A DNA stretch of 64,000 nucleotides from an uncultured Nitrososphaeraceae archaeon. GTDB taxonomy: Archaea > Thermoproteota > Nitrososphaeria > Nitrososphaerales > Nitrososphaeraceae. Made by a program: the position numbers and the translations under genes. Positions 29,111 through 29,622 of this stretch are shown here, one piece after another. Position 1 is the first letter of the stretch; every line of letters starts with the position of its first letter. The stretch covers positions 384,001 through 448,000 of the forward strand of contig CAVZZA010000003.1 in assembly GCA_963779615.1 (NCBI GenBank). The letters run 5' to 3'. The notes under the pieces were generated by a model. It made no database searches, was not told the origin of the DNA, and saw only the letters and a program-made list of their open reading frames with translations.

Positions 29111-29289
29111 TTGTGTCTCCAATGACTCCGGTAACTCCGGTGAGCACAAAATGTCTCCGGAAAACGAGAGTTTAACTCCGTATTTGGAAGAAATGTCTCC
29201 GGAAAAAGATAAGATGTCTCCAGGCAATCGGGATGATGCAAGCATTAAATCCAACAGTTCCGGAGACACCGGACACAGCGGAGTCATTC
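29111..29289 (+). repeat. Repeat R6 (same subtype as R0)
   Basis: Close match to 8231-8400, with one additional 9-bp unit in the left arm. Confidence 0.95.
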
Positions 29290-29480
29290 CCTATATATCT
29301 AAGGAGGAAGTTGACAAAACTAAAGACGATGTAAAAGAAACCGAAGGGTCAGAAACAGATAAAATGATAGGGTTTAGAGAGCCATTTCATTATTGCAGGC
29401 AGCACCCCCATGTCCAAAACATACATCGAGAGGAGATAGACCACCATATACGATATTCCAAAGAGCACGTTGGAGAGTAG
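29111..29480 (+). pseudogene. Orphan duplicate of the rep 3' tail
   Basis: SGEHKMSPENESLTPYLEEMSPEKD...IRYSKEH matches the Rep C-terminus; no rep homology upstream of 29111. Confidence 0.92.
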
Positions 29481-29622
29481 AAAACAAATGATGATGATAT
29501 TTATTTTTACAAGCAAATCCTAACTCATTTATTTTGGCGATACTTGTTCTCTTCATGTCATCTGTTGGTGTCCAAGATAAAAGAATTTAAGTAAATGCTC
29601 AAAGTCCTAGTCTAATACAATC

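Follow-up and report, generated by a model that had tools for sequence, protein, structure and literature searches.

The 3' end of the rep gene of an integrated element in an uncultured Nitrososphaeraceae archaeon occurs a second time 21 kb downstream, where it is joined to unrelated DNA at the edge of a repeat module. We prefer to read this second copy as what is left of a rep from a sister element after truncation at the repeat, and not as the outcome of a DNA block inserting into rep, and we give this reading about an even chance of being right. The window, meaning the whole 64,000-nt stretch of DNA that was analysed, is G000:C3:384001-448000 of a 3.17-Mb genome with 36% GC that is assembled in 5 contigs. 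Coordinates preceded by w are positions in the window, C1, C4 and C5 are other contigs of this genome, and features of the window lie on the forward strand unless stated otherwise.

An intron-containing tRNA-Ala (TGC) gene at w2254-2346, detected by ARAGORN and Rfam, forms the element's left attachment site, and a candidate right attachment site at w41582-41597 matches the 3' end of this tRNA gene at 16/16 positions. Both w41584-41739 and w53009-53162 resemble DNA near att and int in a metagenome relative (L041) and in a decayed C5 element, and att-like sites lie in tandem at ~w2332, w41582 and w53009. Because the copy of the tRNA 3' end at w41582 is followed by att- and int-proximal DNA, the window can be read as a ~39-kb element integrated at tRNA-Ala and then the remnants of further elements at the same site. 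A family of att-proximal sequences (72-78%) is found after each tandem att-like site, at w41169-42525 and w52598-54014, and also at C5:411572-412091 and C5:428776-429269, beside the C5 copies of the R6 flank described below.

The gene order of the element is integrase, 687-aa protein, 155-aa protein, rep and cargo. The tyrosine integrase (w2291-3652) matches PF00589 with an E value of 1.8e-4, under the Pfam cut-off; its ORF as listed begins within the tRNA gene, and the real start probably lies downstream of the listed one. Integrase paralogs that are 41-61% identical occur elsewhere in G000, and homologs that are 45-57% identical adjoin rep in L034, L039 and L041. The 687-aa protein with CxxC pairs (w3672-5735, reverse strand) is assigned to no family, with no match in Pfam, PHROGs or NCBIfam and a best atlas match of 0.84. 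It was considered as a recombinase candidate and dropped, since these searches and the atlas comparison were uninformative. The 155-aa protein (w6158-6625) has homologs immediately 5' of rep in G064 and G019, and its ORF overlaps the start of rep by 29 nt (w6597-6625) in another frame, an overlap that is also seen in G019.

The rep gene (w6597-8591, stop codon w8589-8591) encodes a 664-aa protein without a PrimPol domain; an N-terminal PrimPol domain (PF09250) is present in 5/14 aligned members of the family, and relatives of rep occur in 55/151 genomes of the Nitrososphaeraceae. Searches with the single rep sequence returned no match in Pfam, PHROGs, NCBIfam or PDB, and a rep profile gave at most weak P-loop matches to PDB sequences. 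The AlphaFold model (mean pLDDT 71, confident for residues 50-547) has Foldseek matches (E ~1e-8) to SCCmec Cch, poxvirus D5/E5, NrS-1, SaPI5 Pri-Rep, PriRep1 and ASFV PrimPol, SaPI5 Pri-Rep being among the best (TM 0.42/0.60), and a P-loop is present in both the model and the alignment. Given these matches to SF3/D5 helicases of mobile elements and viruses, the protein is predicted to be an SF3/D5-like, self-loading replicative helicase of mobile elements, and the name Rep is justified. The confident part of the model ends with two helices (H480-493 and H507-525) and two strands (E527-533 and E539-545), and on the secondary structure of the model residues 480-545, a helix-helix-hairpin arrangement directly before the repeat, look like a winged helix. 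Residues 548-647, which are encoded by the repeat, have pLDDT values below 50 and are predicted to be disordered, and the C-terminus consists of a linker and a small Cys/His-rich domain. In-frame stops interrupt the closest rep homologs L002/L021 (G064:C2, one TAA) and L003 (G019:C72, two TAA), and in another close homolog, L031 (G157:C20), the gene falls into two ORFs; pseudogenization, errors of sequencing or recoding may explain these interruptions. A Cys/His-rich tail also ends ORFs of 641 and 665 aa in L039 (G054:C24) and L038 (G128:C2), respectively, whose bodies gave no match to rep with the query used, and this tail may be a shuffled module.

Toward its 3' end, rep contains a ~170-bp repeat module, R, whose copy within the gene, R0 (w8232-8400), carries two left 9-mers, two internal ones and, on the right, three inverted ones. 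The eight window copies can all be aligned and have three direct 9-mers (two in R0), two internal and three inverted ones in ~175 bp. The core motif ATGTCTCCRG is present 12 times in the window against 0.11 expected, a count reached in 0/100 shuffles, and in the genome as a whole hardly any copies fall outside the window locus and a second array, on C5. In distant rep homologs the protein homology ends at ~residue 545, and at that position they carry 7-9-mers of their own, in 4-8 copies and on both strands (GGAGATA/ACTGGAG in L006 and L012, CCGGAGA in L013, GACGATA in L015 and L019, CGAACGA in L014). Counting the weaker clusters of L008, iterons are found at this place in 7/13 homologs examined, often with a Cys/His-rich domain after them.

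In the published description, a SaPI origin has two sets of opposed iterons at the 3' end of rep, which the Rep winged helix reads, with AT-rich DNA between them (PMC9371898). R shares much of this design, in that at least two iterons per side, in opposed directions, lie at the 3' end of a rep whose helicase fold matches, the helicase core ends in a domain predicted to be of DNA-binding type, the repeat sequence varies between Rep lineages and the element, which is integrated, has a tyrosine integrase. Unlike in SaPIs and related PICIs, the rep ORF runs through the iterons into the Cys/His-rich tail, the units are 9-mers, ten more full or truncated R copies are spread across the cargo, and the host is an archaeon. 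Nor is the interior of R AT-rich, its AT content ranging from 57% (R0) to 69% (R3) against 63.7% for the genome. Since lineage-specific, two-armed iterons at the 3' end of rep reproduce the layout of a SaPI origin, R is, from its design and position, most probably the element's origin or control site, to which Rep would bind. In iteron plasmids such as P1 and F, additional iteron clusters serve as control loci. Here too, several clusters of repeats predicted to bind the initiator lie outside the candidate origin on one replicon, but each cluster is a whole two-armed module and the modules are set between cargo genes over 24 kb.

As the original prediction had it, the 3' tail of rep is duplicated at 29111-~29510, for w8232-8623 and w29121-29509 are 86.0% identical over 392 nt (E 7.6e-129). 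The duplicated stretch comprises the repeat (R0 or R6), the last 119 codons of rep (residue 546 corresponds to w8232), the stop codon and ~30 nt more. The first tail, consisting of the linker and the Cys/His-rich domain, occupies w8401-8623 including the ~30 duplicated post-stop nt. The second (w29291-29509) keeps an intact frame to its stop at w29478-29480 and is likewise followed by the ~30 duplicated nt. R6 (w29111-29290) is a rep-type, coding module with three left 9-mers where R0 has two, a 9-bp in-frame difference that had been noted correctly, as had the abrupt onset of homology at the 9-mers: identity is 145/168 in the repeat, 165/191 in the tail and 18/21 after the stop, against 36/88 (41%) in the ~100 nt upstream and 25/45 past the post-stop block. 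Next to the junction, R0 and R6 share a 76-nt block without a single difference (w8245-8320), which at the observed divergence has a p value of ~1e-5. This identity suggests gene conversion or exchange between the R0 and R6 sites, and would also fit active R-R recombination.

When the breakpoint was aligned, the join was placed at w29110 +/-3 from both sides. The left flank of R6 (w28903-29110, 208 nt) belongs to a family found next to tRNA-like att fragments on C5 and is 82-83% identical to C5:428251-428461 and C5:409859-410068, both of which lie directly after a tRNA-like 3' fragment. This homology ends at '...GGTAAGATTT', where the C5 copies diverge and the window enters R6. The junction at w29110 +/-3 thus lies between unrelated DNA and the 3' end of rep, and the edge of the repeat is a true rearrangement boundary. 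A decayed second rep upstream, which the original prediction had named as the finding that would count against it, is absent: a family profile run in six frames over w8601-29200 and w29401-45000 gave no homology to the rep body (all E values above 1), the positive control giving 1e-245.

The sequence between R5 and R6 (w26139-29110, no strand assigned) is a mosaic of a module with a 165-aa ORF, a ~50-nt motif, two inserted ORFs and the C5-like 208 nt. The module of 165-aa ORF and ~50-nt motif (w26447-27027 and w28868-28924) occurs at no fewer than six places in G000 and also in G157, several of the G000 copies being near int or rep fragments, and in the window its parts are separated by 1.85 kb with two ORFs (w27376-28798). 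It is found 3' of rep in G157 and in a C1 element of G000, and just 5' of the att site at w41582 there is a weak paralog. The ORFs of 165 and 184 aa that we take as the right-end modules of two sisters are only ~40% alike. We also considered that R6 might be a hybrid, intergenic-type at its left end and rep-type inside, and rejected this, as the C5-like sequence explains the left flank and R6 may equally well be a rep-type R that has three 9-mers. On the other side of R6 and its tail lies a gene for a beta-helix protein (w29623-31281; PF13229, PF05048), which is present in 1/34 genomes of the genus, namely G000 itself. A metagenome scan recovered one relative (L041) among 127 candidate stretches, and it does not carry the beta-helix gene.

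The two tails are equidistant from the outgroup G157, with identities of 140/188 for that of R0 and 141/188 for that of R6, and L041 gives a similar result. Overall, the tails have a dN/dS ratio of 0.40; the C-terminal domain taken alone gives 0.15, computed from 7 synonymous and 6 non-synonymous changes. Purifying selection of this strength on the tail points to an origin of the second copy in another functional rep and not in decay in situ, and taken together the 86% similarity, the equal distance to the outgroup and the dN/dS ratio argue that the tails diverged within functional genes of sister elements. Because both tails are equally far from G157, neither can be called old or new, and the pairing of the rep body with the R0 tail appears no better supported than its pairing with the R6 tail.

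R is not limited to the two rep tails. An nhmmer search recovered eight copies in the window locus and three on C5 (E 1e-35 to 5e-57), together with a partial one on C4, and their orientation is uniform within each array (8/8 in the window locus, 3/3 on C5). Beyond R0, the array in the window consists of R1 (w9613-9768), which is without a right arm; R2 (w14361-14573), intergenic with canonical flanks; R3, which is followed by a third rep tail (w16651-16998 together); the intergenic R4 (w19103-19313); R5 (w25926-26138), preceded by an Endo_dU gene with which it spans w24880-26138; R6; and R7 (w31755-31965), the last repeat of the array. The third tail (~w16870-16998, found by tblastn) is decayed and frameshifted, and in sequence it is more similar to the G064 and G096 tails than to the R0 or R6 tail. 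The intergenic type of R has three left 9-mers, a common interior and fixed flanks of ~25-30 nt on each side, measuring ~245 bp; the flanks are homologous to rep coding sequence on either side of R0, and the type also occurs in G157 and G096. These fixed, rep-homologous flanks and the presence in other genomes argue that the intergenic copies stem from the 3' region of a rep and have long been conserved as non-coding sequence, as opposed to being independent products of decay.

Cargo between the R copies includes Kelch, PsbP-like, STAND/TPR, Mrr-type nuclease, membrane protein, HtrA, Endo_dU and F5/8-type genes and a split IS. The second array (C5:212597-216770, minus strand) has three R copies and no rep, lies near an integrase fragment (C5:221587-221864) and att-like sequences, and looks like a decayed sister element. 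The segment made up of the Endo_dU gene and R5 is common to the two arrays (84% over 1262 nt). On the left it ends at w24880, away from any repeat; on the right, the last right 9-mer lies within a few nt of the point where the identity of R5 to the C5 copy drops from ~80% to ~40%. An earlier description of R5 as being without the canonical right flank was accordingly narrowed to R5 and its C5 counterpart losing homology at the edge of the arm. No R array follows rep in G064:C2 (17 kb covered) or L041 (2.2 kb), and the second R copies of G019 and G064:C9 are inverted. The arms of R pair as a hairpin with z values of -2.4 and -4.7, as any inverted repeat would. We rejected the possibility that R is a MITE or other non-autonomous transposon: the ends are inverted, but any duplication at the arm edges or canonical flanks is at most 4 nt long, and the copies are confined to two loci and one fragment.

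Several other repeated sequences were seen in and around the array. STAND-ATPase/TPR genes are duplicated at 73% between a cassette of the array (w12478-14073) and the region after R7 (w35641-37215), and in the cassette copy the ATPase part (206 aa) and the TPR part (581 aa) are separate pieces. An IS with DDE_Tnp_4 is present in two copies (77%), at w22370-23362 and w55052-56040, the one in the array being split into two ORFs. A tandem repeat at w11108-11323 has a coding unit of 27 nt that produces peptide repeats in a 150-aa ORF, and further tandem repeats lie at w53571-53738 (12 nt, ~12 units) and w34667-35488 (120 nt, TPR-coding).

Orphan rep tails are found in at least six other genomes of the genus, and 8/11 start at rep residues 529-556, counts that draw on kin genomes and paralogous copies and so overstate independence. 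At six of nine loci examined, the tail is a clear orphan with no rep body upstream, while the other three (G096C3, G096C189 and G144) keep rep-body homology upstream. Since all six clear orphans have stops, frameshifts or a lost tail, they are best regarded as relics. The left limits of orphans lie ~0 (R6), 6, 13-20, 27, 50, 85, 110 and 290 nt 5' of the first 9-mer. Junctions were sought from both sides in three other genomes: the G109 paralog ends ~50 nt before the first 9-mer, the G096 orphan has no flank paralog and the G064 paralogs stop 90 nt or more before R. Such limits fit a protected, protein-bound module, or imprecise breakage nearby, better than a fixed point of strand exchange. The proposal that the repeat is a crossover point is therefore retained in part: the repeat edge is a rearrangement boundary at R6, but the limits in relatives scatter over 0-290 nt.

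Under the reading we favor, R6 and its tail would be the 3' end of a sister rep that was ~86% identical and functional until recently, and that lost its body and became fused, at the outer edge of the first 9-mer, to other mobile DNA. The route would be that sister elements accreted at the same tRNA site and that a deletion followed, with its right endpoint either guided to the protein-bound iteron module or confined there by selection. As the locus visibly holds stacked elements and one deletion is enough, this route is the most economical. Points against it are that a random endpoint within ~5 nt of the first 9-mer is improbable unless directed or selected, that the 76-nt identical block points to conversion or exchange between the two sites, and that the two ORFs taken as right-end modules have so little in common. 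Truncation is favored with modest confidence.

The event originally proposed was different, namely that a 20.9-kb segment with its own repeat and rep tail recombined into rep, restored the gene and displaced the resident tail downstream, by the logic of att-site replacement. We consider this unlikely. The part of the proposal that stands is the junction at the repeat edge. The block is flanked by direct repeats of the 3' end of the gene, and rep stays open through the upstream one; homology begins on the left at the first 9-mer, with the 76-nt identical block alongside, and the third tail after R3 could be a tail left behind on an earlier occasion. Elements that integrate into tRNA genes are reported to replace the 3' end of the target gene and to form tandem arrays at one att site (PMC6563490). 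The present locus is alike in having the 3' end twice in direct order around a block, with the upstream copy completing the gene, and in the tandem re-use of the tRNA-Ala site. It is unlike such replacement in that the copies are 14% diverged instead of near-identical, other mobile DNA lies directly left of the downstream copy and related orphans start at scattered positions. Moreover, apart from the split DDE transposase, no integrase or recombinase was found in the block (ORFs of at least 80 aa were scanned, and no int paralog lies at w8.6-29.1 kb), so that the likeness to att-site replacement extends to the direct repeats at both ends and not to a site-specific recombinase. The outgroup, as seen above, does not pick out a resident tail; a decayed R3 tail between two intact ones does not suit simple serial displacement; and the breakpoints in relatives are spread over 0-290 nt. 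A donor circle would also need an R already orphaned beside a C5-like fragment, which moves the problem one step back. It is because insertion calls for this pre-existing orphan donor and for a block without a recombinase, and because a 165-aa module of right-end type lies to the left of R6, that truncation of a sister rep is favored.

Integrons have been reported in Archaea (10.1101/2022.02.06.479319), and R could by analogy be a recombination site with rep-borne and cassette-borne forms, at which a recombinase of the element or host swaps the cargo bounded by R; R6, its tail and the beta-helix gene would then be a captured cassette. Several features recall such a system: sites in one orientation (8/8 and 3/3) and imperfectly palindromic, with arms that, like those of any inverted repeat, can form a hairpin, bound variable and partly defence-like cargo (Mrr-type nuclease, STAND/TPR, HtrA) beside a platform gene, the intergenic form with its fixed flanks is kept across genomes (G157, G096), and the Endo_dU cassette is common to two arrays with a break at the arm edge. 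There is, however, neither IntI nor attI here and no recombinase tied to R, the nearest integrase being a weak PF00589 match 4.6 kb from R0, beside the tRNA gene and tRNA-directed. The sites measure 190-245 bp and consist of 9-mer iterons derived from rep coding sequence, the cassettes are multi-gene with mixed orientation, and the left end of the shared cassette (w24880) is away from any repeat. An insertion of R6-R7 into the C5-like sequence should have left the rest of that sequence beside R7, but it was not found there, and a search for it gave weak inverted matches at w46920-47015 at most. The lack of arrays 3' of rep in G064:C2 and L041 and the inverted second copies in G019 and G064:C9 also speak against this explanation, which we regard as distinctly improbable.

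That no recombination at the repeat took place, and that R6 and its tail are a free-standing small gene or a duplication that drifted in situ, is very improbable. An ORF of 132 aa (w29082-29480) is indeed open with an ATG, and dN/dS is below 1. However, the ATG (w29082) and first 10 codons come from the C5-like flank, and the reading frame after this ATG is not kept in the two C5 copies, where it runs for 175 aa and 31 aa, so the ORF appears to be a chimera; moreover, 6/6 clear orphan tails in relatives are broken. A drifting duplicate would be a single decaying copy, whereas both tails have changed equally since the split from the outgroup. Finally, two tails collapsed or mis-joined from different cells or elements can hardly account for the junction, for although the 76-nt identical block might mislead a short-read assembler, the junction lies ~20 nt to the left of it in unique sequence, the copies differ at 52/370 positions, and in this genome of 5 contigs any path through the block leaves one tail on the C5-like flank.

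Integrated elements of soil archaea are poorly understood, and no origin or mechanism of cargo exchange is known to have been defined for them. The module described here provides a concrete candidate origin for a Rep family present in 55/151 genomes, and its junction, mapped to within a few bases, makes the module edge the place where parts of the element join. An array with origin-like modules between cargo genes is an architecture not known from SF3-Rep islands, and no comparable repeat arrays were found in passages of the main survey of such elements (PMC6563490). Beyond a role as an origin, we tentatively raise the idea, though we think it unlikely, that cargo units of an archaeal cassette system are exchanged at R. 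Origin-type modules derived from the 3' end of rep would mark these units, and Rep or a partner bound to the 9-mers would excise, copy or swap them between sister elements, leaving displaced tails as scars. If the modules are active exchange sites, they would represent a new mode of cargo assembly in archaeal mobile DNA; if they are protected relics, they would still delimit the functional bounds of the candidate origin.
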